Positions 1,119 to 54,854 of a stretch of 56,327 nt of DNA are shown here, in pieces. Source of the DNA: Fidelibacterota bacterium (GTDB lineage: Bacteria; Fidelibacterota; Fidelibacteria; Fidelibacterales; Fidelibacteraceae); assembly GCA_034723415.1 (NCBI GenBank), contig JAYEOX010000027.1:1-56327 (forward strand), given 5' to 3'. Positions within the stretch are counted from its first letter, which is position 1. Every line of letters begins with the position of its first letter. The notes under the pieces are model-generated. The model made no database searches. It saw only the letters and a program-made list of their open reading frames with translations, and was not told the origin of the DNA. Position numbers and translations under genes: made by a program.

Positions 1119-1955
1119 ATGTTTGATGAAGTTATAAAATATGGTAATTCAAAAATTCAACATGGTAAGCATAGTGATAGAATATATTTGATGAAATTGG
1201 ATGATGCGGATGTCGGTTCTATTATTAATAAATTAGACAAATTAACTGAAGAGCATAAATATGGGAAAATATTTACAAAAATTCCTAAAAAGCACTTTGA
1301 GATATTTTTGAATGACGGATTTGAAAAAGAAGCGGAAATACCTAAATTTTATAATGGTGAAAACGACTGCGTATTCATGAGCAAGTTTCCTGTAGAAAAA
1401 AGAGGAGTTATCCAAGCAGATATTAAAAAGCGATTAAATGATGTTCTAACAGTATGTAAAGAGAAAGAGCAGTTGACTAAAGAGCCAAAAATTTCCGATG
1501 AATTTGAGTATAAAATATTGAAACATGAAGATGCTAAGCAATTAACTGAATTATATAAAGTTGTTTTTGCCAGTTATCCATTTCCAATTTATGATGAGAA
1601 TTATTTAAAGGAAACAATGGATGACAATATTATCTATTTTGGAATATTTTATAAAGGGAAATTGGTTAGTGCATCTTCTGCAGAAATGGATTTTGATGGA
1701 GAGAATGTAGAAATGACGGATTTTGCTACGCTGCCTGATTTTAGAGGAAATAATTTTGCCCAATTTTTGCTTTATCAAATGGAAAATGAAGTAATTAAAA
1801 AAGGGATAAAGACATTTTTCACGATTGCAAGGGGAGTTTCTTTCGGAATGAACATTACTTTTGCAAAGTTAGGATACAAATATGGCGGCACTTTGATTAA
1901 CAATACGAATATTTCCGGTAATATAGAAAATATGAATATTTGGTATAAAGAATAA
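1119..1955 (+). CDS. ablB: GNAT acetyltransferase, probable beta-lysine N6-acetyltransferase
   Basis: 278 aa with a C-terminal GNAT fold pattern (VEMTDFATLPDFRGNNFAQFLL). It lies directly downstream of kamA, as in ablA-ablB / yodO-yodP pairs. Confidence 0.7.
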   Translation: MFDEVIKYGNSKIQHGKHSDRIYLMKLDDADVGSIINKLDKLTEEHKYGKIFTKIPKKHFEIFLNDGFEKEAEIPKFYNGENDCVFMSKFPVEKRGVIQADIKKRLNDVLTVCKEKEQLTKEPKISDEFEYKILKHEDAKQLTELYKVVFASYPFPIYDENYLKETMDDNIIYFGIFYKGKLVSASSAEMDFDGENVEMTDFATLPDFRGNNFAQFLLYQMENEVIKKGIKTFFTIARGVSFGMNITFAKLGYKYGGTLINNTNISGNIENMNIWYKE

Positions 1956-2020
1956 AAATAATAGCAACTAACAAAAACTAACAATAACCAACAGCGTTAA
2001 TTGTGGATTGTGAATGGAGA

Positions 2021-2044
2021 CTGCTTGCCCACCACAGGCGGGGA
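2021..2044 (-). repeat. Inverted partial copy of the GC core of the 48-nt intergenic element
   Basis: The reverse complement tCCCCGCCtgtggtGGGCAaGcag matches tCCCCGCCatttcGGGCAGGaaat at 2125-2148. Confidence 0.8.
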
Positions 2045-2083
2045 GACAGGAAAACGGAAAAGGGAAACCGGAAGACTGAAAAT
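2042..2083 (+). repeat. Degenerate heptamer array A, (GGANNNN)x6
   Basis: ggagaca ggaaaac ggaaaag ggaaacc ggaagac tgaaaat, strict 7-nt register, about 83% purine. Lies in the ablB 3' intergenic region. Confidence 0.9.
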
Positions 2084-2118
2084 CTTATCAATTTATAAAA
2101 ATTTATTTTAAACTACAT

Positions 2119-2166
2119 TTAACATCCCCGCCATTTCGGGCAGGAAATATCCAACACGAAATATTC
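2119..2166 (+). repeat. 48-nt GC-cored intergenic element, copy 1
   Basis: ttaacatCCCCGCCATTTCGGGCAGGAAATATCCAACACGAAATATTC. Has a CCCG-N6-CGGG hairpin followed by an AATAT/ATATT AT-rich stem. Confidence 0.9.
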
Positions 2167-2202
2167 AATATTGAAGGTTAATACTACTTGATAATTGATA
2201 AA

Positions 2203-2290
2203 ATCTACGAAGTAGATAAATATTAATAACTATGGGTGTAACCCATAGAGGGAAGATAAACATCAACAACAAAGAACTACGAAGTAGTTC
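2203..2290 (+). other. Three perfect short hairpins (candidate structured RNA or DNA segment)
   Basis: 2203-2217 atctac-gaa-gtagat; 2230-2248 ctatggg-tgtaa-cccatag; 2274-2290 gaactac-gaa-gtagttc. Two share the ctacGAAgtag core. Confidence 0.8.
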
Positions 2291-2310
2291 AATAAGAAAC
2301 CAAATCTAAT

Positions 2311-2358
2311 TTAATATTCCCGTTATTGCGGGCAGGCAATATCCAATATGGAATATTC
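2311..2358 (+). repeat. 48-nt GC-cored intergenic element, copy 2
   Basis: ttaatatTCCCGTTATTGCGGGCAGGCAATATCCAATATGGAATATTC. Aligns without gaps to copy 1. The tail reads AATATCC AATATGG AATATTC, again with a 7-nt period. Confidence 0.9.
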
Positions 2359-2557
2359 ATTTGTTAATCTCTATCGTAAATAATAGGGCTAGCAGTGTGA
2401 AAATAAAATAGTTACCCACATCATTCACGATATGGATCAAAAAACACTACGCTACAACAACTCAAGGTTTTTACGCCTGCACACTTTTTTATCTTTTAAT
2501 TTCAAAAATTTAATTAATTGTTTTCAAATTCAAAAAAATATTGCTAATTTAAAATAT

Positions 2558-3403
2558 ATGCAGAATTTAGATAAAATATACGATTTTCATAATCACATTG
2601 TCTATGGTGTGGATGATGGCAGTGATTCATTAGAAAAATCAATAAAGATGCTTCGACAGGCGGCTGATCAAGGTGTTACAAATGTCGTTTGTACACCACA
2701 TCAATTTGAAACTGATGAACCAAGGATACTTTCTGAAAGGCAAAAAACAATAGTAGAAAGATTTAATATTCTCAAGGAAAAAGTTAAAGAGAAAAATATT
2801 CCAATTGAATTGTCACTTGGTTCTGAAATTATGTTTTTTAAGGATGTTAAGAAGTATTTAAAAAATCCGTATTTTACAATAAATAATAATAAATATGTAT
2901 TAATAGAATTCCATTTAATGGGACCGCCAATTGAGTTTGTAGATGTTTTTTATGACTTGATTGTTGCCGGATATGTTCCGATTTTGGCACATCCTGAAAG
3001 AATTGCCGGTCTATATGATGAAAGAAGAAGTTTAATTAAATTATTAAAAATGGGTGTCTTATTTCAGATTAATACAGGGAGTATTTTAGGATTATTGGGG
3101 AAAGGTGCACAAGAGAGTTCAAAAAAATATCTGGAGAATAATTGGATACATCTATTAGGCAGCGATGCTCATTCACTTAATTTTCGAAGAGGTTTTTCTA
3201 TGCAACAAGGTATAGAATATATTTCTAAAAATTATCCCCATATAAATTTAAAAGAAATTTTAGAAGTAAATCCCAAAGCTGTTATAAATGGTGAACATGT
3301 AGAAGTTGATATTTCTGATATTAAAATTAGAGTAAAATCACCAAAGAGTAATTTGAAAAAATTACTGAATAAAATTATCAAAAAAACTAAAAAAATAATA
3401 TAG
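2558..3403 (+). CDS. PHP-domain protein-tyrosine phosphatase (CpsB/CapC family)
   Basis: Motifs HNHIVYGVDDGS, CTPH, LAHPER and GSDAHS. I place the start at ATG 2558 (MQNLDKIYDFHNH), because the family starts just before the HxH motif. The tracked ORF start at 2432 adds 42 non-homologous residues. Confidence 0.8.
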   Translation: MQNLDKIYDFHNHIVYGVDDGSDSLEKSIKMLRQAADQGVTNVVCTPHQFETDEPRILSERQKTIVERFNILKEKVKEKNIPIELSLGSEIMFFKDVKKYLKNPYFTINNNKYVLIEFHLMGPPIEFVDVFYDLIVAGYVPILAHPERIAGLYDERRSLIKLLKMGVLFQINTGSILGLLGKGAQESSKKYLENNWIHLLGSDAHSLNFRRGFSMQQGIEYISKNYPHINLKEILEVNPKAVINGEHVEVDISDIKIRVKSPKSNLKKLLNKIIKKTKKII

Positions 3404-3408
3404 AATAT

Positions 3409-4029
3409 ATGTTTAAGGTAGAAAAGATCATAACCGGTGTTTTCCAAGAAAATACTTATTTAATTTATAATAATAAAGATGTAATTATTATTGATCCGGG
3501 TGATGATTTTGAAAAAATTGATCTGTTTATTAGGGAAAACGAATTATTACCAAAAGCAATTTTAGGAACACACGGTCATATCGATCATATTTCATCTGTT
3601 TATCCTTTAAAAGAAAAGTATAATATTCCGTTTTATTTAAATAGTAAAGAACAATCTAATCTTGATTATTTAGAATCAGTATCCGATAAGTATAATATTA
3701 AATATTGGGGGACCCCAAAAATTGATATAGATTTAGAAAATAAAAATGAGATTTCAATAGGTAAATTCAATTTTAAAATAATTCATTCTCCTGGTCATAC
3801 TTTAGGCGGTGTATTATTTAAAATAAATGATATTGTATTCTGTGGTGATACGATTTTTAAAAATTCAATTGGAAGAGTTGACCTTCCTGGTGGTGATATG
3901 AGAGTATTGAAGGATAGCATATTGAAAAATATTTACACATTACCTGAAGACACAAAGTTATACCCGGGACATCTTGGAATTACTACTGTAAAACATGAAA
4001 AATACAATAACCCTTATGTACATATTTGA
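3409..4029 (+). CDS. MBL-fold metallo-hydrolase (glyoxalase II / YcbL-like)
   Basis: HGHIDH (HxHxDH) motif, a later SPGHT motif and a terminal YPGH; about 206 aa. Confidence 0.85.
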   Translation: MFKVEKIITGVFQENTYLIYNNKDVIIIDPGDDFEKIDLFIRENELLPKAILGTHGHIDHISSVYPLKEKYNIPFYLNSKEQSNLDYLESVSDKYNIKYWGTPKIDIDLENKNEISIGKFNFKIIHSPGHTLGGVLFKINDIVFCGDTIFKNSIGRVDLPGGDMRVLKDSILKNIYTLPEDTKLYPGHLGITTVKHEKYNNPYVHI

Positions 4030-4050
4030 TAAACTAAATATTGAGGTATT

Positions 4051-4782
4051 ATGGAAACAATTTATAAAGCGTTAATTGGAGCAGGTATTGGCTGGGTAAT
4101 ATTAGGCCCGATGGGAGCAATAATAGGAGGAATGATCGGTGCTCAGTCTTCTAAACAAATTTCTAGAAAAAGACGATTTCATCCATATAGCCAAACACAA
4201 AAAGGTGATTTTTATGTAAGTTTAGTAGTTATTTTTGCTTATGTTGTGAAGGCAGATAAAAAAATCCGTAAAAGTGAAATTTCTTATGTTAAAAATTATT
4301 TGTTACAAAATGTAAGTAATCATAATTTAGTTCAAGATCTGATGAATATGTTAAAAAATGTGTTGGAAAAAGAGATAGAAATTCAAAAAATAACACAACA
4401 AATAGCGGATAATATGGATTATGCATCAAGATTACAACTTATACATTTGCTTTTTGGAATAGCTCTTGCTGATGGGGAATTACATTCATCTGAAAAAGAT
4501 GCAATTAGGCAAATAACAGTTCTTCTTAAACTTCCTATGCAAGATTATCAATCGATCTTTTCAATGTATCATCAAAAAAATAGAGATTCCGCATATAAAA
4601 TTTTAGAAATTTCTCCGGATGCTACTGTTGATGAGATCAAGAATGCATATAAAAAAATGGCTAATAAATATCACCCTGATAAGGTCTCACATCTTGGGGA
4701 AGATATGGTAAAAATGGCCGAAGAAAAATTTAAAGCTATTAATAATGCTTATAGTTCGATTCGCAAAAGAAAAGGTTTTTAG
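4051..4782 (+). CDS. djlA: DjlA-like co-chaperone (N-terminal TM, TerB-like domain, C-terminal J domain)
   Basis: N-terminal glycine-rich TM (GAGIGWVILGPMGAIIGGMIGA). C-terminal J domain: YKILEISPDATVDEIKNAYKKMANKYHPDK with the HPD motif. Confidence 0.75.
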   Translation: METIYKALIGAGIGWVILGPMGAIIGGMIGAQSSKQISRKRRFHPYSQTQKGDFYVSLVVIFAYVVKADKKIRKSEISYVKNYLLQNVSNHNLVQDLMNMLKNVLEKEIEIQKITQQIADNMDYASRLQLIHLLFGIALADGELHSSEKDAIRQITVLLKLPMQDYQSIFSMYHQKNRDSAYKILEISPDATVDEIKNAYKKMANKYHPDKVSHLGEDMVKMAEEKFKAINNAYSSIRKRKGF

Positions 4783-4824
4783 AATTTTATACTTGATTAA
4801 TTTTAATTTATTTTGGGGGGAATA

Positions 4825-6102
4825 ATGTCAATTAAATATGATGACAGCCATCTAATACCATCATTTAGACAAAAAGATTTAAATAAATTTAGACCCAAAA
4901 CGGTTGAATCATTAAATCTATTGAAAAATCGAAATGGATCCGGAAGTGAATTTCTCGGATGGTTAGATTTACCCAATCAAAATGTCGATGATTTAAAAGA
5001 ATTGATAGATGCAGGAAATGAGGTAAAGAATAGTAATGATTTGCTGGTTTGTATAGGAATTGGTGGAAGTTATTTGGGAGCAAAGGCAGTTATTTCATCA
5101 TTAATGCCTAAAAATAATATTCGGTTCATCGGTCATCATTTATCACCTTTAGGATTGTCACAATTACTTGAAGAATTAAAAGAAAAAGATTTTTATGTGA
5201 ATGTGATATCAAAATCCGGTACAACCACTGAGCCGGGAATCGCCTTTAGGATTATCAGAGAATTAGCCGAAAAGAAATATAGTAAAAGATCAAAAGATAG
5301 AATTATTGTTACAACAGATTCTGAAAAAGGTGCATTAAAACAATTAGCAGATCAGAAAGAATATAGAAAATTTGTTATTCCTAATGATGTTGGTGGAAGA
5401 TTTTCTGTTTTAACTCCGGTAGGATTATTACCGATCGTAGCCGCCGGTTTGGATATAAATTCTATATTAAATGGTGCAAAAATTGGATTAAAAAACTCAA
5501 TGATCCCTGATGATAAAAAAAATATTGCTATTAGATATGCACGCAACAGAAGTATTTTATATTCAAAAAAGAAAAAAATAGAAATATTGGCATCAATGGA
5601 TCCACAAATTCATTATATTGCAGAATGGTGGAAACAATTATACGGTGAAAGTGAAGGGAAAAATGGCAATGGAATTTTTCCGGCAAGTGTTGATTATACT
5701 ACCGATCTGCATAGTTTAGGTCAGTTAATTCAAGATGGTGAACGAAATATTTTTGAGACATTCTTAGTAATTGACAATTATTCAAATGACATTGAGATTC
5801 CTTATGATAATGGAAATTTAGATGGATTAAATTACTTGAGCGGGAAGAAATTAACTTTCGTAAATAGTAAAGCTTACGAGGGAACACTTAAAGCACATAT
5901 CAATGGGAATGTTCCCTGTTCAACTTTACATATTGAAAAATTAGATGAAGAAAATATAATGGAATTATTAGTAATTTTTGAAGTCGGGGTTGCACTTTCC
6001 GCATATAATTTAGGTGTAAATCCATTTGATCAACCCGGAGTTGAAACTTATAAAAATAACATGTTTGAATTGCTCGGTAAACCAAAATTTATTAATAATT
6101 GA
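4825..6102 (+). CDS. pgi: Glucose-6-phosphate isomerase (short bacterial/archaeal type)
   Basis: GIGGSYLG, SKSGTTTEP, GGRFSVL and YGESEGK motifs. I prefer the ATG at 4825, preceded by a GGGGGG SD-like run at 4815-4820; the tracked start at 4813 is TTG. Confidence 0.9.
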   Translation: MSIKYDDSHLIPSFRQKDLNKFRPKTVESLNLLKNRNGSGSEFLGWLDLPNQNVDDLKELIDAGNEVKNSNDLLVCIGIGGSYLGAKAVISSLMPKNNIRFIGHHLSPLGLSQLLEELKEKDFYVNVISKSGTTTEPGIAFRIIRELAEKKYSKRSKDRIIVTTDSEKGALKQLADQKEYRKFVIPNDVGGRFSVLTPVGLLPIVAAGLDINSILNGAKIGLKNSMIPDDKKNIAIRYARNRSILYSKKKKIEILASMDPQIHYIAEWWKQLYGESEGKNGNGIFPASVDYTTDLHSLGQLIQDGERNIFETFLVIDNYSNDIEIPYDNGNLDGLNYLSGKKLTFVNSKAYEGTLKAHINGNVPCSTLHIEKLDEENIMELLVIFEVGVALSAYNLGVNPFDQPGVETYKNNMFELLGKPKFINN

Positions 6103-6159
6103 AATAAGTAAAGAAGTGTAATTAGAAATAAGTAGAAAACATATTTGTTTGGAGGATAA

Positions 6160-7245
6160 ATGGATAAAATAGAAAAGATAAATTATAAAGACATTGTGTT
6201 AGTATTAGATGCAATGGGCGGGGATGATGCCCCAAAGATTACAGTAAAAGGGGCATGTAAAGCAAGTTTAAAAAATGAATTTAAAACAATTCTTGTTGGA
6301 GATGAAACAAAGATTACAACATATTTGAAAAAGTACAAGCACGATGAAAATAAAATTCAAATTGTACATGCAGCAGATGAAATAAAGATGGGTGATCATC
6401 CGAAAGATGTCTTACGAAATCCAAATACTTCTATTGGAATTGCCGCAAAAATAGTTGGAGATAATAAAGGTGATGCGTTGATTTCAGCTGGAAATACCGG
6501 AGCTGTTATTTTGGCAACAACAAAGAATATTGATAGAATTGTAGGTGTGCGAAGAACGGCATTAGCAACAATTTATCCGACACACAATTCTCAGAAAAGA
6601 GATGATATTTTTTCGTTGATATTAGATGTTGGGGCAAATGTTCATAATTTAGCTCACGAAATAATTCATTTTGCATTTATGGGAAGTGCTTATGTAAAAG
6701 CGATTAAAGGGATAGAATCACCTACAATTGGTTTGCTGAATATAGGTTCAGAAGAGTATAAAGGTGGTGAAGTATTGTCAAGAGCTTATACGATACTTAA
6801 ATCAATTCCGAGTTTAAATTTTTTTGGAAATGTAGAAGGAAACGATTTGATGAAAGGGCTTGTAGATGTTGTTGTAACCGAAGGAATAACCGGAAACATT
6901 GCAATAAAAACCATTGAAGGAATGGCGGGTTCGATGAAGGAAGTTGGGAAAATTGCATTTAAACATAATATGATTTGGAAAATGGGAATGGTAATGTTAG
7001 CGAGTGGAATTAAAAAATTGCAAGATATTACTGATTTTGAAACTTATGGTGGTGCTCCGGTATTTGGATTTGAAAAAACGGTCATAAAATGTCATGGACG
7101 TTCAACTGAAAAATCAATAAACAACGCACTTGTTTTGGCAGCAAAATCAGTTCATGAAAATATGAGTGGTACAATTTCAAGATCAATTGCACATTTTGAG
7201 CACCGTAATGGATTAGAAGAAATTGGAAGAGAAATTAATTATTAA
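6160..7245 (+). CDS. plsX: Phosphate acyltransferase PlsX
   Basis: LDAMGGDDAP, SAGNTGA and GGAPVFG motifs; about 360 aa. Confidence 0.9.
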   Translation: MDKIEKINYKDIVLVLDAMGGDDAPKITVKGACKASLKNEFKTILVGDETKITTYLKKYKHDENKIQIVHAADEIKMGDHPKDVLRNPNTSIGIAAKIVGDNKGDALISAGNTGAVILATTKNIDRIVGVRRTALATIYPTHNSQKRDDIFSLILDVGANVHNLAHEIIHFAFMGSAYVKAIKGIESPTIGLLNIGSEEYKGGEVLSRAYTILKSIPSLNFFGNVEGNDLMKGLVDVVVTEGITGNIAIKTIEGMAGSMKEVGKIAFKHNMIWKMGMVMLASGIKKLQDITDFETYGGAPVFGFEKTVIKCHGRSTEKSINNALVLAAKSVHENMSGTISRSIAHFEHRNGLEEIGREINY

Positions 7246-7277
7246 TATTTCACGTAAAGAAAGAGGCTCACACATAT

Positions 7278-7291
7278 CTGCTGCGGGCAGG
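7278..7291 (+). repeat. Partial copy of the element core (TGCGGGCAGG)
   Basis: In ctgcTGCGGGCAGG, 10/10 nt match 2327-2336 of copy 2. The flanks are not homologous. Confidence 0.6.
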
Positions 7292-7368
7292 TAAAGTTAT
7301 GAAGACGCAAAGAAGAAAAATAAGTTATAAAATTGTAAAAACTCAACAAAAGGATTTTTTTATTATAT

Positions 7369-7417
7369 GGAAAACGGAGGACGGAGATAGGAAACTGGAG
7401 GACGGTGAACGGAGAAA
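7369..7417 (+). repeat. Degenerate heptamer array B, (GGANNNN)x7
   Basis: ggaaaac ggaggac ggagata ggaaact ggaggac ggtgaac ggagaaa, strict 7-nt register. Lies in the plsX 3' intergenic region. Confidence 0.9.
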
Positions 7418-7444
7418 AATTTCTAATTTCTAACCAAATTACAC

Positions 7445-7491
7445 TTAATATTTCCGCCATTGTGGGCAGGCAATATTAACACGGAATATCT
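7445..7491 (+). repeat. GC-cored intergenic element, copy 3 (47 nt)
   Basis: ttaatatTTCCGCCATTGTGGGCAGGCAATATTAACACGGAATATCT. It has a 1-nt deletion in the tail relative to copies 1 and 2. The stem becomes TCCG/TGGG (two G-T wobbles). Confidence 0.9.
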
Positions 7492-7513
7492 AATTATAAA
7501 GTCGTGAAATTGT

Positions 7514-7548
7514 GTTAAAACTTTTGAAGTTTTAACTTATTTTATTAC
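7514..7548 (+). terminator. Putative intrinsic terminator (AU-rich stem plus T-rich tail)
   Basis: gttaaaact-tttga-agttttaac is a perfect 9-bp stem, followed by ttattttattac. The T-tract is present only on the + strand. Confidence 0.45.
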
Positions 7549-7673
7549 AATAATTTCAATTGTTTTATATTTTATTTGCTCAAAATTCGGAAGTTTTTTG
7601 TATAAGTTTTAAAAAACTAAAAAAAATGATTGGTTAAATAGAAAATAATTAATATATTTAAAGATAATGAGTA

Positions 7674-9602
7674 ATGTTGAAAATTAAGAAAAATATGAGT
7701 GAAAAAATTAAAATAAAATTACCTGACGGTACAGAGAAAAATTTCCCTAAAGGATCGACTTCCTATGATGTTGCTTTGTCAATAAGTAAAGGATTAGCGG
7801 AACACAGTTATCTTGCAAAAGTAAATGATAAATTAGTTGATTTAAATGCGAAATTAAAAAATGATTCTAATGTTGAATTAATTACAGATAAATCTCCTGA
7901 ATTAGAAGAAGTTTTACTTCACAGTGCAGCACATGTTATGGCCCAAGCAGTAAAGAGATTATATCCAAAAGTAAAAGTAGCAATAGGTCCGGCTATAGAG
8001 AATGGATTTTATTATGATTTCGATTTTGATGAACCTTTAACAGAAGCTGATTTACCGAAAATCGAAAAAGAGATGAAAAAGATCATAGACGAAGATTATT
8101 CTATAGAAAGAAAAGAGATCAGTAAAAAGGAAGCGATAGAATATTTTTCAAATCCAAAAGAGAATTATAAATTGGAAATAATTGATGAATTCCCTGATAA
8201 TGAACAAATATCTTTATATTCACAAGGTGATTTTACCGATCTATGTCGTGGACCTCATCTTCCTTCAACCGGAAAAATTAAGGCATTTAAATTACTTAGT
8301 GTTGCCGGTGCATATTGGCGTGGTGATGAAAAGAACAAAATGCTTTCGAGAATTTATGGAACTGCTTTCATTAGTAAGAAGAAATTAAATAAATATTTAA
8401 ATTTGCTTGAGGAAGCGAAGAAACGCGATCATCGAAAGTTAGGTAAACAGCTTGATCTTTTTGATATATCGGAACAGGTTGGGCAAGGTTTAGTTTTATG
8501 GTATCCAAAAGGAGCGACACTAAAAAAGATAATTGAAGATTTCTGGTTTAAAGAACATAAAAAAAATGATTATGAACTTGTTTTATCACCTCATATTGGA
8601 AAATCAGGTCTTTGGGAAACATCAGGTCATTTGGATTTTTACAGAGAATCTATGTATCCGCCAATGGATGTAGAGGGACAGGATTATTATATTAAACCGA
8701 TGAATTGTCCATTCCATATTATGATCTATCAACGAAGACAACAGAGTTATCGTGATCTTCCGGTAAGATATGCGGAATTGGGAACTGTCTATCGTTATGA
8801 ATTATCCGGAGCTTTACACGGTTTAATGAGAGTGAGAGGATTTACACAAGATGATGCTCACATTATTTGTACTCCGGATCAACTTGATGAAGAAATTGAA
8901 AAATTAATAGCATTTTCGTTTGAATTTTTAAAAGCTTTTGGATTCAAAAAATTTGAGGTCTTTTTATCAACTATACCGACGGATAAATATGTTGGTGAAC
9001 CCGCAAAATGGAAAAAAGCACAAGATTCATTAAGCCTATCATTGGAAAAAATGAAAGTTCCATATGAAATTGACGAAGGTGGAGGTGCTTTTTACGGGCC
9101 TAAAATAGACATAAAAATTAGAGACGCAATTGGCAGATTATGGCAATGCACAACAATTCAGTTCGATTTTAATTTACCGGAAAGATTTGATATGAATTTT
9201 ACAGCATCAGATGGAACCAATCAGAGACCATATATGATCCATAGGGCAATTATGGGTTCATTAGAAAGATTTATTGGAATTTTGTTAGAGGATACTGCCG
9301 GTAATTTACCTGTATGGTTGTCTCCTTATCAAGTATGTATTATTCCGATAACAGACAGACAAGTTGAATATGTTAAAAAAATAGATAAAAAGTTAAAAGA
9401 TAATTCAATAAGAAGTAAGATAAATGCTCATCAAGAAAAAGTAGGTGCCAAAATTCGCACAGCTGAATTAGAAAAAATTCCATATATGCTGATAATTGGT
9501 GATAAAGAGATGGAAAGTGGAAAAGTCAGTGTTAGAAAACATGGTTCGGGTGATCAAGGAAAAATGTTATTAGATGAATTTATAAAGAACATTAAAAATT
9601 AA
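7674..9602 (+). CDS. thrS: Threonine--tRNA ligase
   Basis: N-terminal TGS (IKIKLPDGT), editing-domain HSAAHV, and class II motifs (FRGFTQDDAH-like RVRGFTQDDAHI). An alternative start at ATG 7695 (MSEKIKIKLPDG) is possible. Confidence 0.95.
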   Translation: MLKIKKNMSEKIKIKLPDGTEKNFPKGSTSYDVALSISKGLAEHSYLAKVNDKLVDLNAKLKNDSNVELITDKSPELEEVLLHSAAHVMAQAVKRLYPKVKVAIGPAIENGFYYDFDFDEPLTEADLPKIEKEMKKIIDEDYSIERKEISKKEAIEYFSNPKENYKLEIIDEFPDNEQISLYSQGDFTDLCRGPHLPSTGKIKAFKLLSVAGAYWRGDEKNKMLSRIYGTAFISKKKLNKYLNLLEEAKKRDHRKLGKQLDLFDISEQVGQGLVLWYPKGATLKKIIEDFWFKEHKKNDYELVLSPHIGKSGLWETSGHLDFYRESMYPPMDVEGQDYYIKPMNCPFHIMIYQRRQQSYRDLPVRYAELGTVYRYELSGALHGLMRVRGFTQDDAHIICTPDQLDEEIEKLIAFSFEFLKAFGFKKFEVFLSTIPTDKYVGEPAKWKKAQDSLSLSLEKMKVPYEIDEGGGAFYGPKIDIKIRDAIGRLWQCTTIQFDFNLPERFDMNFTASDGTNQRPYMIHRAIMGSLERFIGILLEDTAGNLPVWLSPYQVCIIPITDRQVEYVKKIDKKLKDNSIRSKINAHQEKVGAKIRTAELEKIPYMLIIGDKEMESGKVSVRKHGSGDQGKMLLDEFIKNIKN

Positions 9603-39554: not shown

Positions 39555-40004
39555 ATGAAGAAATTAATTACAACAGTAAAAGTTCGAAGTTATGAATTAG
39601 ATTCTTTCAAACATATAAATAACGGTGTTTATGCTCATTATCTTGAAAAAGCTCGTGGTGACTATCTTCAACAAATTGGTCTTACTTTTACAAGTTTTGA
39701 TGAATTAAAAGCTTGGCCGGTAATTGCACATTTGGAAATTGATTATAAATATCCGGCTTTTTTTGGTGAAGAACTTTCAATCGAAGCTGTGGTATCAGCA
39801 TTAGGAAAATCCTCAATTACATTAAATTATAAAATGTATAATCAGGATAGAAAGTTAATAATTACAGCATCTACGAGGATGGTATTTGTTGGAGAAAATG
39901 GAAAACCAACACAAATGCCGGAAGTATTTAGAAAGGGGTTTGTTAAATACGGAGACAGGAAACTGGAAACCGGAGACCGGAAACGGCAAAATAAAAGGAG
40001 TTAA
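39555..40004 (+). CDS. Acyl-CoA thioesterase (4HBT/YbgC family) with a repeat-encoded C-terminal tail
   Basis: VRSYELDSFKHINNGVYAHYLEKAR hot-dog motif. The last ~18 aa (YGDRKLETGDRKRQNKRS) are translated from heptamer array C. Confidence 0.8.
   Translation: MKKLITTVKVRSYELDSFKHINNGVYAHYLEKARGDYLQQIGLTFTSFDELKAWPVIAHLEIDYKYPAFFGEELSIEAVVSALGKSSITLNYKMYNQDRKLIITASTRMVFVGENGKPTQMPEVFRKGFVKYGDRKLETGDRKRQNKRS
39951..39992 (+). repeat. Degenerate heptamer array C, (GGANNNN)x6, overlapping the thioesterase 3' end
   Basis: ggagaca ggaaact ggaaacc ggagacc ggaaacg gcaaaat. It starts (GGAGACAGGAAA) and ends (AAAAT) like array A. Confidence 0.9.
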
Positions 40005-40090
40005 CCAAAAGGAGTAATAAAAATTAGAAAAAGGAGGTTTTAGATAGAGGAAGAAGAACGGAGAGTGAAAGCCTAAAAATAATAAATAAG

Positions 40091-40125
40091 TTTTTCTTTT
40101 CTCCTGTTTCTGTTTTCCGGTTTCT
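40091..40125 (-). repeat. Heptamer array D (inverted orientation)
   Basis: The reverse complement reads agaaacc ggaaaac agaaaca ggagaaa agaaaaa. tccggtttc (40116-40124) is the exact complement of gaaaccgga (39966-39974). Confidence 0.85.
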
Positions 40126-40137
40126 GAAAAAATAACA

Positions 40138-41457
40138 ATGAAAAATATATTTAAAATAAAAAATTTAATTAAAAAAATAATATCCGTTTTTCGTTCTTCG
40201 TTTTTCGTTCTTCGTTATTTTATCCTAATAATTTTTATTGTTACTAATATATTCGGAAAAATCTTGATTCCAATGGATGAAAGTCAAAATAATCATTTAA
40301 AAAGTTACGGAATTGCTTTTTGGGTATTGCAGAATGGTGAAAATGTTGATTGGCTATTAAATTACAGAGGTGGTTCTTTTGCGGTTGAAAATTACAGTAA
40401 CATCAAAAAGGAATGTCTGATCAGAGGAGTTACATTTGAAGAAGTAAGTGCATCTGAATATAATGCCATTTTAAGCACAATTGAAAATAATAATATGGAT
40501 GTAATGGTTTTAGAAAAAGAGCCGAAAATTGCCGTATATACACCTCCAAATAAGATGCCTTGGGATGATGCGGTTACATTGGCATTGACTTATGCTGAAA
40601 TTCCATATGAAACAATTTATGATAGAGAAATACTCCAAGGAAAGCTAAAAGAGTATGATTGGTTACATTTACATCACGAGGATTTTACAGGACAATACGG
40701 TAAATTTTATAGAAATTATAGAAATACAAGTTGGTATAAAAATGATAAAAGAACTCAGGAGGCACTAGCATCTTCTCTTGGATTTGAAAAAGTATCAAAA
40801 TTAAAACGATCTATTGCTTTTTATATAAAAAAATATGTAGCTCAAGGTGGGTTTATGTTTGCGATGTGTGCAGCAACTGATTCTTATGAAATTGCTTTAG
40901 CTTCTAAAAATATAGATATAGTTGCTTCGGTTTTTGATGGTGATGGAGTTGATAATAATATACAAAGCAAATTGGATTTTAGTCAAACATTTGCTTTTGA
41001 GAATTTTAAATTAATTACGAATCCATTGATCTATGAATTTTCAAATATTGATATTCCACCGAGTAATAAGCCATTTCTAACAAATCCAAGCAAAGATTAT
41101 TTTTCACTTTTTGAATTTTCTGCCAAATTTGATCCGGTTCCAACAATGCTTACACAAGATCACCGTTCGATCATTAAGGGATTTATGGGACAAACTACCG
41201 GATTTAATAGAAAGGTTATAAAGAAACATGTATTAATAATGGGTGAAGTTAAAAATACAGATATGGTAAAATATATTCATGGAAATTACGGAAAAGGAAC
41301 ATTTACATACTATGGTGGGCACGATCCGGCTGATTATAAACATTTTGTTGGTGATCCGCCTACAAATTTAGATCTACATAAAAACAGTCCGGGTTACAGG
41401 TTAATATTAAATAATGTTTTGTTTCCGGCAGCTAAAAAGCAGAAGAGGAAGACATAA
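40138..41457 (+). CDS. Conserved secreted/membrane-anchored protein of unknown function
   Basis: 439 aa with an N-terminal hydrophobic anchor. Strongly conserved-looking blocks: LLNYRGGSF, LTYAEIPYE, HLHHEDFTGQYGKF, PGYRLILNNVLFPAA. From memory this matches an FCB-group family often mislabelled 'asparagine synthetase B'; unverified. Confidence 0.7.
   Translation: MKNIFKIKNLIKKIISVFRSSFFVLRYFILIIFIVTNIFGKILIPMDESQNNHLKSYGIAFWVLQNGENVDWLLNYRGGSFAVENYSNIKKECLIRGVTFEEVSASEYNAILSTIENNNMDVMVLEKEPKIAVYTPPNKMPWDDAVTLALTYAEIPYETIYDREILQGKLKEYDWLHLHHEDFTGQYGKFYRNYRNTSWYKNDKRTQEALASSLGFEKVSKLKRSIAFYIKKYVAQGGFMFAMCAATDSYEIALASKNIDIVASVFDGDGVDNNIQSKLDFSQTFAFENFKLITNPLIYEFSNIDIPPSNKPFLTNPSKDYFSLFEFSAKFDPVPTMLTQDHRSIIKGFMGQTTGFNRKVIKKHVLIMGEVKNTDMVKYIHGNYGKGTFTYYGGHDPADYKHFVGDPPTNLDLHKNSPGYRLILNNVLFPAAKKQKRKT
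40184..40218 (-). repeat. Heptamer array E (inverted orientation), inside the first codons of the 40138 CDS; contains a perfect 14-bp tandem duplication
   Basis: ccgtttt tcgttct tcgtttt tcgttct tcgttat. gtttttcgttcttc occurs at 40186-40199 and again at 40200-40213. Confidence 0.9.
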
Positions 41458-41504
41458 TTGGTGAGTGGGTGACTTTGTGAAAGAGAGACAAGGAGATAGG
41501 GAGG

Positions 41505-41544
41505 CTTTGTGACTTTGAGATTTTGTGACTTTGAGACTTTGAGA
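41505..41544 (+). repeat. Octamer tandem array F (CTTTGWGA x5)
   Basis: ctttgtga ctttgaga ttttgtga ctttgaga ctttgaga, plus an orphan unit at 41473-41480. Preceded by a GGA-type purine patch aagagagacaaggagatagggagg (41481-41504). Confidence 0.9.
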
Positions 41545-41768
41545 TTAGGTAACAATGGATTTAAAATATATTTGGTTGTGGAATTTAAAAATCTCAATTT
41601 CAAAATGATTATTTATTAAATTATTAGTATTCTTGTGGTTCTCTTTGTGTTTTTTGCGAAGACGGCGTTAAAATTAAAATTCTAAAAATGAAACTTGATT
41701 AATTAAAAATAATTCTTTAATTTATGACTAAAATAAGGGAGAAGTAAAATAATAAAAGAGAGGATAAA

Positions 41769-54332: not shown

Positions 54333-54348
54333 CAAAAGGGGGAAAGTT

Positions 54349-54636
54349 ATGACAAAAGCAGAAATTATTGGAAAAATTTCAGAAATTACCGGTTTAACAA
54401 AAGTTGAAGCGGAAACAGTTGTAAATGGTTTTTTTGCTACGGTAAGTGAGGCATTGGAAAATGGTGAAACAATTAATTTTCGCGGATTTGGAAATTTTAT
54501 TGTCAAACACCAAAAAGCAAGAAATGGTTTTAATCCAAGTACCAAGGAAAAAATTTGGATAGGTGAAAAATACAAACCAGTATTTAAACCATCAAAAATA
54601 TTAAAAGAAAAAGTAAATAACAGTTTAAAAAAATAA
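54349..54636 (+). CDS. hup: HU/IHF-family DNA-binding protein
   Basis: MTKAEIIGKISE...FRGFGNF.VKHQKARNGFNPSTKE.I.I contains the HU arm motif. Confidence 0.9.
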   Translation: MTKAEIIGKISEITGLTKVEAETVVNGFFATVSEALENGETINFRGFGNFIVKHQKARNGFNPSTKEKIWIGEKYKPVFKPSKILKEKVNNSLKK

Positions 54637-54649
54637 TGGGGGATTTAAT

Positions 54650-54742
54650 TTGTCAGGTGGAAAAAAACGAAAAAAAAGAAAAATAAAAAATCATAAGAGA
54701 AAAAAAAGATTAAGAAAAAATCGTCATAAGAAAAAAAAGTAA
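54650..54742 (+). CDS. 30-aa lysine/arginine-rich mini-protein, bS22-like (AURKAIP1/COX24-type) candidate ribosomal protein; TTG start; absent from the ORF track
   Basis: ttg tca ggt gga aaa aaa cga ... aag taa gives (M)SGGKKRKKRKIKNHKRKKRLRKNRHKKKK. SD GGGGGA at 54638-54643 lies 6 nt upstream. The KRKKR..K.HK.KKRLR..RHK pattern resembles mycobacterial/Bacteroidota bS22. Confidence 0.6.
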   Translation: MSGGKKRKKRKIKNHKRKKRLRKNRHKKKK

Positions 54743-54854
54743 TTTAGCAATTCTATTTTTCAAGATAATAAAGATTAATATTTAATATAATTATTTGTGT
54801 TTATTAATGAATAAATTAAATATTAAATAGTTATTTTCATTATATTATATAAAA

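Follow-up and report, generated by a model that had tools for sequence, protein, structure and literature searches.

A composite intergenic hairpin element in a Marinimicrobia bacterium, best filed with species-specific hairpin repeats

Two long spacers and the copies of the element

The analysed DNA, a stretch of 56,327 nt referred to here as the window, belongs to a Marinimicrobia (SAR406) bacterium, and the homologues of its ThrRS and PlsX bear Marinimicrobia, Neomarinimicrobiota or Fidelibacterota names. Its GC content is about 29%, its GC skew is strongly positive, and nearly all of its genes lie on the + strand. These are ordinary housekeeping genes: an ablA-like aminomutase gene, a GNAT gene, cpsB, the gene of an MBL-fold protein, terB/dnaJ, pgi and plsX, and further along thrS, infC, rpmI, rplT, pheST, zapA and rny. 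No transposase, RAYT or integrase (intI) was found among the window ORFs of at least 100 aa, and no tRNA or tmRNA gene in the 56 kb. Despite the presence of thrS, infC-rpmI-rplT, pheST, hisS and argS, the window is also without any Rfam family at gathering threshold, T-box or L20 leader.

Spacers in Marinimicrobia have a mean length of 40-80 nt (PMC6143742). The longest true spacers of the window lie between the GNAT gene and cpsB and between plsX and thrS, and GC-rich 12-mers in spacers are almost confined to these two, with a single other one in the spacer at 41458-41768. A 522-nt gap among the listed ORFs of at least 100 aa (54333-54854) is no long spacer, as it holds a small HU/IHF-like ORF (54350-54637); a tiny Lys/Arg-rich ORF of about 29 aa (54652-54741) lies in the same gap. 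The features of the two long spacers are as follows.

1956-2560, + strand: expanded GNAT-cpsB spacer of 605 nt, its counterpart between the same genes of relatives being 88-166 nt; holds copies 1 and 2
2026-2042, - strand: inverted copy of the GC core only, CCCGCCTGTGGTGGGCA, from a pattern match and predicted pairing
2042-2090, + strand: GGA-rich, T/C-poor tract about 28 nt 5' of copy 1, part of the composite
2119-2166, + strand: copy 1 of the 48-nt element, with extended similarity over 2106-2175
2203-2217, no strand: perfect hairpin A, ATCTAC-GAA-GTAGAT, between copies 1 and 2
2230-2248, no strand: perfect hairpin B, CTATGGGT-GTA-ACCCATAG, between copies 1 and 2
2274-2290, no strand: perfect hairpin C, GAACTAC-GAA-GTAGTTC, between copies 1 and 2
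2311-2358, + strand: copy 2 of the 48-nt element, with extended similarity over 2298-2367 and weaker likeness to the copy 3 unit from 2274
7246-7673: plsX-thrS spacer of 428 nt; holds copy 3
7266-7505, + strand: lineage-specific filler at the plsX/thrS synteny junction, in which the partial core, a GGA tract and copy 3 lie, with no counterpart 3' of plsX in relative L057 or 5' of thrS in relative L031
7278-7291, + strand: partial core CTGCTGCGGGCAGG, carrying one of the four GGGCAGG heptamers of the window
7369-7417, + strand: GGA-rich tract about 27 nt 5' of copy 3, part of the composite, which aligns to 2049-2176
7445-7491, + strand: copy 3 of the element, with extended similarity over 7432-7500

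A sequence-only reading of this DNA had described three same-sense copies of a 48-nt element, about 75-85% identical by eye and differing in length by a single 1-nt indel. All three copies lie where they had been placed (2119-2166, 2311-2358 and 7445-7491) and on the + strand, their pairwise identity across the 48-nt core was measured as 77-81%, and the indel is in copy 3. The copies are thus real, but their length of 48 nt does not hold, as the similarity goes further. It spans about 60-70 nt among all three copies (nhmmer), and a weaker similarity spans 95-136 nt, with the upstream GGA-rich tract included (blastn). In the blastn alignments, 2049-2176 matches 7369-7501 (68% over 136 nt, E 9e-10) and 2274-2367 matches 7407-7500 (70.5% over 95 nt).

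The core pattern CCGYYATTKYGGGCAGG occurs three times, versus 0.10 times expected from shuffles. GGGCAGG is found only four times in the window, at 2138, 2330, 7285 and 7464, always within the two long spacers, and since the heptamer at 7285 belongs to this set, the partial copy that had been proposed at 7278-7291 is real. So is the inverted copy: CCCGCC-N5-8-GGGCA occurs twice in the 56 kb, at 2127-2142 (+) and at 2026-2042 (-), with none expected from shuffles. The three full copies, the inverted core and the truncated core all lie within 5.5 kb, and the other 50 kb of the window gave no further copies (nhmmer; covariance model R1 with filters off). These counts cover the 56-kb window and the same-species contigs that overlap it. 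Each element also carries AATAT(T) four times, three of them at 7-nt phase in copy 2. All full copies are intergenic and co-oriented with the genes, each lying 164-200 nt past the upstream stop codon and 183-203 nt ahead of the next start codon. Judged from the alignments, the 48-mer appears to be the best-kept module of a longer composite of about 130-230 nt in total, made of a GC-core fragment, a GGA-rich tract, an AT spacer and the 48-nt element.

Because independent Logan assemblies reproduce both spacers, neither the repeats nor the plsX-thrS junction are assembly artefacts. The contigs come from independent runs on the same organism (L001-L004, L069-L071) and differ by two SNPs only, one of which makes the first stem base of copy 3 T/C polymorphic (contig L004). 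The species is present in the read sets SRR26901924-32. Two of the same-species contigs, L070 and L071, stop inside the GNAT-cpsB spacer (at about 2231 and 2185), which suggests that this repeat- and hairpin-rich spacer breaks short-read assemblies.

The element contains no convincing ORF. Coding potential was also rejected for the - strand frames: copies 1 and 2 give similar peptides of 21-23 aa, copy 3 is frameshifted, and about 2 of the 10 codon differences are synonymous (by eye). A hydrophobic - strand ORF of 32-35 aa at 2165-2272 (MFIFPLWVTPIVINIYLLRRFYQ...), with a shape like a type I toxin, overlaps hairpins A and B and is probably a by-product of the AT-rich hairpin palindromes.

Relatives and the break in gene order

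The element is absent from both loci in the relatives. Upstream of thrS it was not found in relatives with 95%, 88% and 83% identical ThrRS, in which dnaX and not plsX precedes thrS, with a dnaX-thrS spacer of 140-280 nt. The closest of them, at 95%, comes from the assemblies SRR13694685/86. It was likewise not found upstream of cpsB in relatives with 77-78% identical CpsB. These keep the order ablA-GNAT-cpsB-MBL-terB/dnaJ-pgi-(endonuclease)-plsX, with 88-166 nt between the GNAT gene and cpsB, the endonuclease being an extra endonuclease-I/Por-tail gene between pgi and plsX. A covariance-model search, proposed in the sequence-only reading for a wider set, was run with model R1 on the window and on the Marinimicrobia loci; neither it nor nhmmer found a copy in the about 130 kb of related loci.

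The gene 3' of plsX differs in every relative examined (ugd, proC or lacI), and it is thrS here, as seen when 7246-7673 of the window was compared with L031, L033, L035, L057, L059, L061 and L062. The block cpsB-MBL-terB/dnaJ-pgi-plsX is conserved while the gene that follows it varies, which makes this place a rearrangement hot spot. Homology to a relative with 92% identical PlsX ends about 20 nt past the plsX stop codon, and homology to the relative with 95% identical ThrRS resumes at 7506, with 83% identity over 171 nt. Therefore, copy 3 sits where synteny breaks, within novel filler of about 240 nt. A plsX-side breakpoint at about 7382, where a 13-mer is shared, is ruled out, as the alignment homology stops about 20 nt past the stop codon. 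Since the relatives' spacers do not align, the insertion points cannot be placed to the exact base. The sequence just 5' of thrS (about 7610-7673, including TTGGTT-17-TATATT) is strongly conserved and common to the relatives.

The whole window had no match in Rfam 15 at gathering threshold, and region 1900-7700 searched at E<=10 gave only four chance snoRNA/sRNA matches, none of them on the element; the view that it belongs to no known RNA family was thereby borne out. An 18-base core pattern had 26 matches in GTDB species-representative genomes (596 Gb), 21 in JGI metagenomes and none in IMG/VR. The GTDB and JGI matches are all singletons from unrelated, mostly GC-rich taxa with dissimilar flanks, and their number is about that expected by chance. 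Furthermore, blastn of 1990-2400 against phage and plasmid collections returned one 38-nt chance match in the GGA tract and nothing more. The absence from relatives, the chance nature of the core matches in genomes and metagenomes and the lack of matches in IMG/VR suggest that the element is young and, as far as visible, confined to one species-level lineage.

Pairing, wobble changes and folding

The core had been described as a 4-bp hairpin with a variable loop, its stem reading CCCG/CGGG in the first two copies and TCCG/TGGG in the third. These bases are as described, and 16 of 16 cells are standard pairs. The hairpin is thus always paired, but no pair is changed on both sides and it appears in no copy's minimum-free-energy fold. 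The variable loop did not hold up, as the supposed loop bases can pair in alternative registers, and the covariation test came out negative, with one-sided variation only and no measure beating shuffles.

Three registers are mutually exclusive and fit equally well. The 4-bp hairpin joins columns 16-19 with 26-29 of alignment A4. A second register, the hairpin ATTKY-GGGCAG-RMAAT (columns 22-26 with 33-37), pairs at 100% and shows a single true compensatory change (U-A in copy 1, G-C in copies 2 and 3); this compensatory signal was matched by 119 of 500 shuffles (best of all registers; four distinct sequences). The RNAalifold consensus, CCGYY/GG-C(A)GG at columns 17-21 with 28-33 and an outer AATAT/ATATT stem, is 95% paired and shows wobble changes only.

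Folded singly as + strand RNA, the copies do no better than shuffles (z -0.5, -0.7 and -1.9). Folded as DNA, they reach z -3.1, -1.5 and -2.6 for the + strand and -1.2, -1.7 and -2.7 for the - strand. Taken whole, the plsX-thrS spacer is unstructured (z +0.4), and the GNAT-cpsB spacer greatly exceeds shuffles in its degree of structure (z -5.0 for the + strand, -3.6 for the - strand), because the inverted core and that of copy 1 pair with each other and because three perfect hairpins lie between copies 1 and 2. Predicted pairing joins 2023-2029 with 2138-2144 and 2036-2043 with 2124-2131. REPINs are inverted REP doublets that form hairpins in single-stranded DNA or mRNA, with decaying singlets (PMC3116915), and in the predicted fold the inverted core and the copy 1 core would make a REPIN-like doublet around the GGA tract.

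As DNA, hairpins A-C have z values of -6.5 and -6.8, folding as well on one strand as on the other. Their triloops (GAA, GTA and GAA) are of the GNA type, which is unusually stable in DNA mini-hairpins. The motif CTACGAAGTAG is common to hairpins A and C and is found nowhere else in the window or the relatives. All three hairpins look terminator-like on the - strand only.

The stem changes had further been taken as strand-specific and as favouring an RNA of the + strand. The strand-specific pattern is real: all changes opposite an invariant G stay wobble-compatible on the + strand only. The 48-nt cores differ by 12 transitions (11 C<->T and 1 A<->G), 2 transversions and 1 indel, and the only two transversions are the compensatory pair T-A to G-C in ATTKY/RMAAT. 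C<->T changes are found in 11 of 16 C-containing columns, versus G<->A changes in 1 of 9 G-containing columns (Fisher p=0.011), and the C<->T:A<->G ratio is 11:1 in the core versus 31:41 when the third codon positions of thrS are compared with those of relative L031 (Fisher p=0.003). This thrS control shows no leading-strand mutation bias at equilibrium, and such a bias alone was rejected as the cause of the C<->T excess. On its + strand, the element has about twice as many C sites as G sites. Given this C-rich make-up, GC-to-AT decay and an about 2-fold leading-strand C->T excess, the value implied by the GC skew, at least 11 of 12 changes would be C<->T with P=0.22; without the excess, P=0.037.

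The C<->T bias stands as part of the earlier argument, but it does not tell a + strand RNA from a single-stranded DNA hairpin or from decay of a C-rich strand. G.T pairs are tolerated also in single-stranded DNA hairpins. RNA is not singled out over DNA because C-rich decay, this G.T tolerance and compensation by template switching are all possible; the last can give compensatory changes in quasi-palindromes during replication without selection (PMC8794818). Three paralogues are too few to decide between selection on RNA, a single-stranded DNA hairpin and strand decay.

We consider it unlikely that the element is a + strand cis-acting RNA module in the 3' UTR of the preceding operon or in a long 5' leader, with the small GC hairpin, perhaps register-switching, as a signal for processing, stability or termination. 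Such a module would be consistent with the orientation that all copies share with the genes, with their similar distances from the stop (164-200 nt after) and start codons (183-203 nt before), with C<->T changes opposite invariant G that keep G-U on the + strand only, with the one compensatory T-A to G-C change in ATTKY-GGGCAG-RMAAT, and with the 11:1 versus 31:41 ratio (p=0.003). However, the single-copy folds (z -0.5 to -1.9) are no better than shuffles, the plsX-thrS spacer is unstructured (z +0.4), and the three exclusive registers tie, none of them beating shuffles (best 119/500). The hairpin has no U-tract after it, and one core copy is inverted. Moreover, an RNA that the operons need is not expected to be so young as to be absent 5' of thrS and cpsB in relatives with 83-95% and 77-78% identical proteins, and template switching can make compensatory changes unselected (PMC8794818).

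Known signals were tried as well. An intrinsic (Rho-independent) terminator was rejected, since neither spacer has a + strand terminator-like site and the element is followed by CAGGMAATAT, not by Ts. A sigma-70 promoter (-35/-10 with 16-18 nt spacing) was rejected too, as the scan places none on the + strand inside any copy and the indel of copy 3 would shift the spacing. More broadly, sigma-70, sigma-54 and Bacteroidetes -33/-7 promoters gave no consistent match, by scan and by eye.

A proposed hairpin repeat at the DNA level

Direct observations are the copies with their fragments, the lack of any in relatives, the expansion of the two spacers, the break in synteny and the missing coding potential. 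Tentatively, and with slightly more doubt than confidence, we regard the 48-mer as the best-conserved module of a young, lineage-specific, non-coding composite hairpin repeat, REP/REPIN- or MITE-like and of DNA-level origin. The inverted core, the absence in close relatives and the filler at the synteny break argue for a DNA-level repeat and not a conserved RNA gene. A repeat of REP/REPIN, BIME or MITE kind is suggested by the presence/absence among relatives, the expanded spacers, the inverted and truncated cores, the modularity, the lack of coding and the lack of database relatives, which are not the marks of a gene-specific regulator. The composite would have been inserted or duplicated as DNA into two neighbouring intergenic spacers of one Marinimicrobia species, and its C-rich and G-rich half-sites could fold back in single-stranded DNA or in any read-through RNA. 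It may have spread by hairpin-dependent transposition, or by template switching or recombination during local rearrangement. A dedicated cellular function is probably lacking, and effects as a 3'-UTR or spacer hairpin would be incidental.

Several observations count against such a repeat. No more than three full copies are known, all close together, and a genome-wide family is hypothetical; the clustering within 5.5 kb may come purely from duplication in place and not from the dispersal of a family. The full copies all run in the same direction as the genes, the 56-kb window has no transposase, RAYT or integrase, and the unit of 48-70 nt has neither definable terminal inverted repeats nor a definable target-site duplication. 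The conservation of G over C and the compensatory T-A to G-C pair would also fit a selected fold of the + strand.

Like REP and REPIN sequences, the element is short, extragenic and species-specific, and is a GC-rich imperfect palindrome in an AT-rich spacer; its core YCCGYYATTKYGGGCAGG pairs in three registers at 95-100%, with all copies intergenic. One core pair is inverted about 85 nt apart, with a predicted long hairpin (copies 2 and 3 are without an inverted partner), and truncated 'singlet' cores lie nearby, with clusters or tandem arrays in one spacer. In contrast to REP/REPIN, of which there are tens to hundreds per genome, three full copies were seen in 56 kb. No RAYT (IS200/IS605-like Y1 transposase) gene was seen among the window ORFs of at least 100 aa, the element has no GTAG-type head next to its core, its conserved unit is longer (about 60 nt) with a non-palindromic AATAT-repeat tail, and its full copies are direct, not inverted, repeats. 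Membership in REP/REPIN proper is thus tentative.

The element also resembles E. coli BIMEs and pneumococcal BOX elements in its separable modules (GC core, GGA tract, 48-mer and small perfect hairpins), which are combined differently in each spacer and co-oriented with transcription. It has no sequence similarity to them, however, and BIME and BOX elements are genome-wide and common to related strains or species, whereas the element is absent from relatives with 95% identical ThrRS. With MITEs such as the Correia elements it shares a small size, a non-coding nature, its place in spacers and its presence or absence among close relatives, but it lacks terminal inverted repeats and a recognisable target-site duplication. 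A MITE so defined was rejected, as the two ends of the 60-70 nt unit do not complement each other and the flanks show no duplication.

A last resemblance is that to integron attC sites, which act as folded single strands: the copies are same-sense imperfect palindromic repeats between co-oriented genes. Unlike attC, the element has no GTTRRRY partner at a fixed distance and its ends are not complementary; it is flanked by housekeeping genes syntenic with those of relatives, and no intI lies in the window. By eye, RYYYAAC is found only in copy 1 (ATTTAAC) and GTTAA follows the copies at 5, 11 and 22 nt, which is not fixed; attC was rejected on these grounds and on the missing integrase in the window.

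A double-stranded DNA site or site cluster, read at its invariant GGGCAGG and phased AATAT by a putative regulator, nucleoid protein or recombinase, is rather improbable. GGGCAGG does not vary among the copies, persists in the truncated one and is found nowhere else in the 56 kb; AATAT(T) comes four times per element, three of these in copy 2 being at 7-nt phase; conservation is the same outside the stem as within it; and the conserved G-arm beside a drifting C-arm is what recognition of one half only would give. On the other hand, no candidate gene for a binding protein or recombinase lies nearby, and thrS and cpsB appear to own proximal promoter-like sequences that are kept without the element in relatives, for example TTGGTT-17-TATATT at 7630-7658 (by eye). 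The copies are young, so that conservation need not equal constraint, and a compensatory change in the dyad is unexpected for a fixed specificity.

Many genes of this genome and of related Marinimicrobia are followed directly at their 3' side, on the coding strand, by C-poor G/A-rich or G/T-rich tracts. These tracts are found in the window at 2042-2090, 7369-7417, 39951-39996, 40184-40216 and 41470-41550, and in relatives at 1768-1790 of L031, at about 1950-1990 of L057 and at 6205-6260 of L059, as GGA repeats, GTGACTTTGAGA repeats or GGTTGAGG repeats. The tract at 39951-39996 pairs with an inverted partner at 40090-40126 into a long hairpin. Such low-complexity tracts might have a role in termination, antisense suppression or protein binding. 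That the composite is a new + strand regulatory RNA module, with an unpaired GGA-rich tract (5-8 GGA motifs) and a register-switching small hairpin, is very unlikely; examples would be a paralogous sRNA/3'-UTR family that titrates a GGA-binding protein, or a control of read-through between operons.

Least credible is transcription of the - strand from a weak promoter TTGCCT-17-TATTAA (copies 2 and 3), giving short antisense RNAs that end at T-tailed hairpins or opposite the GGA tract, where the - strand is rich in C: hairpins B and C come up as terminator-like for the - strand alone, the complement of the GGA tract is C-rich and G-poor, and the fold of copy 1 is slightly more stable on the - strand, but the -10-like hexamer lacks its key final T and fails the promoter scan, copy 1 is a poorer promoter match, the two stem changes of copy 3 become A-C mismatches on the - strand, and no - strand genes lie nearby.

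The original observation was thus confirmed, its interpretation as RNA is partly supported, and the element is best filed as a new case of species-specific intergenic hairpin repeats. A new RNA class would follow only if many more copies covary or give discrete transcripts. The case also holds a caution, as strand-specific, wobble-only 'support' for a hairpin from three young paralogues can come from a C-rich strand with asymmetric C->T decay. By a literature search, repeats are hardly described in Marinimicrobia, and the two mentions of 'repeat' in one such study are not on repetitive DNA (PMC6143742). If the reading as a DNA-level hairpin repeat is true, the element would be one more species-specific hairpin repeat, and its main value would be practical. 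It probably makes contigs of MAGs break, and it marks spacers that expanded recently and a rearrangement junction, in an uncultured marine lineage that is supposed to be streamlined.
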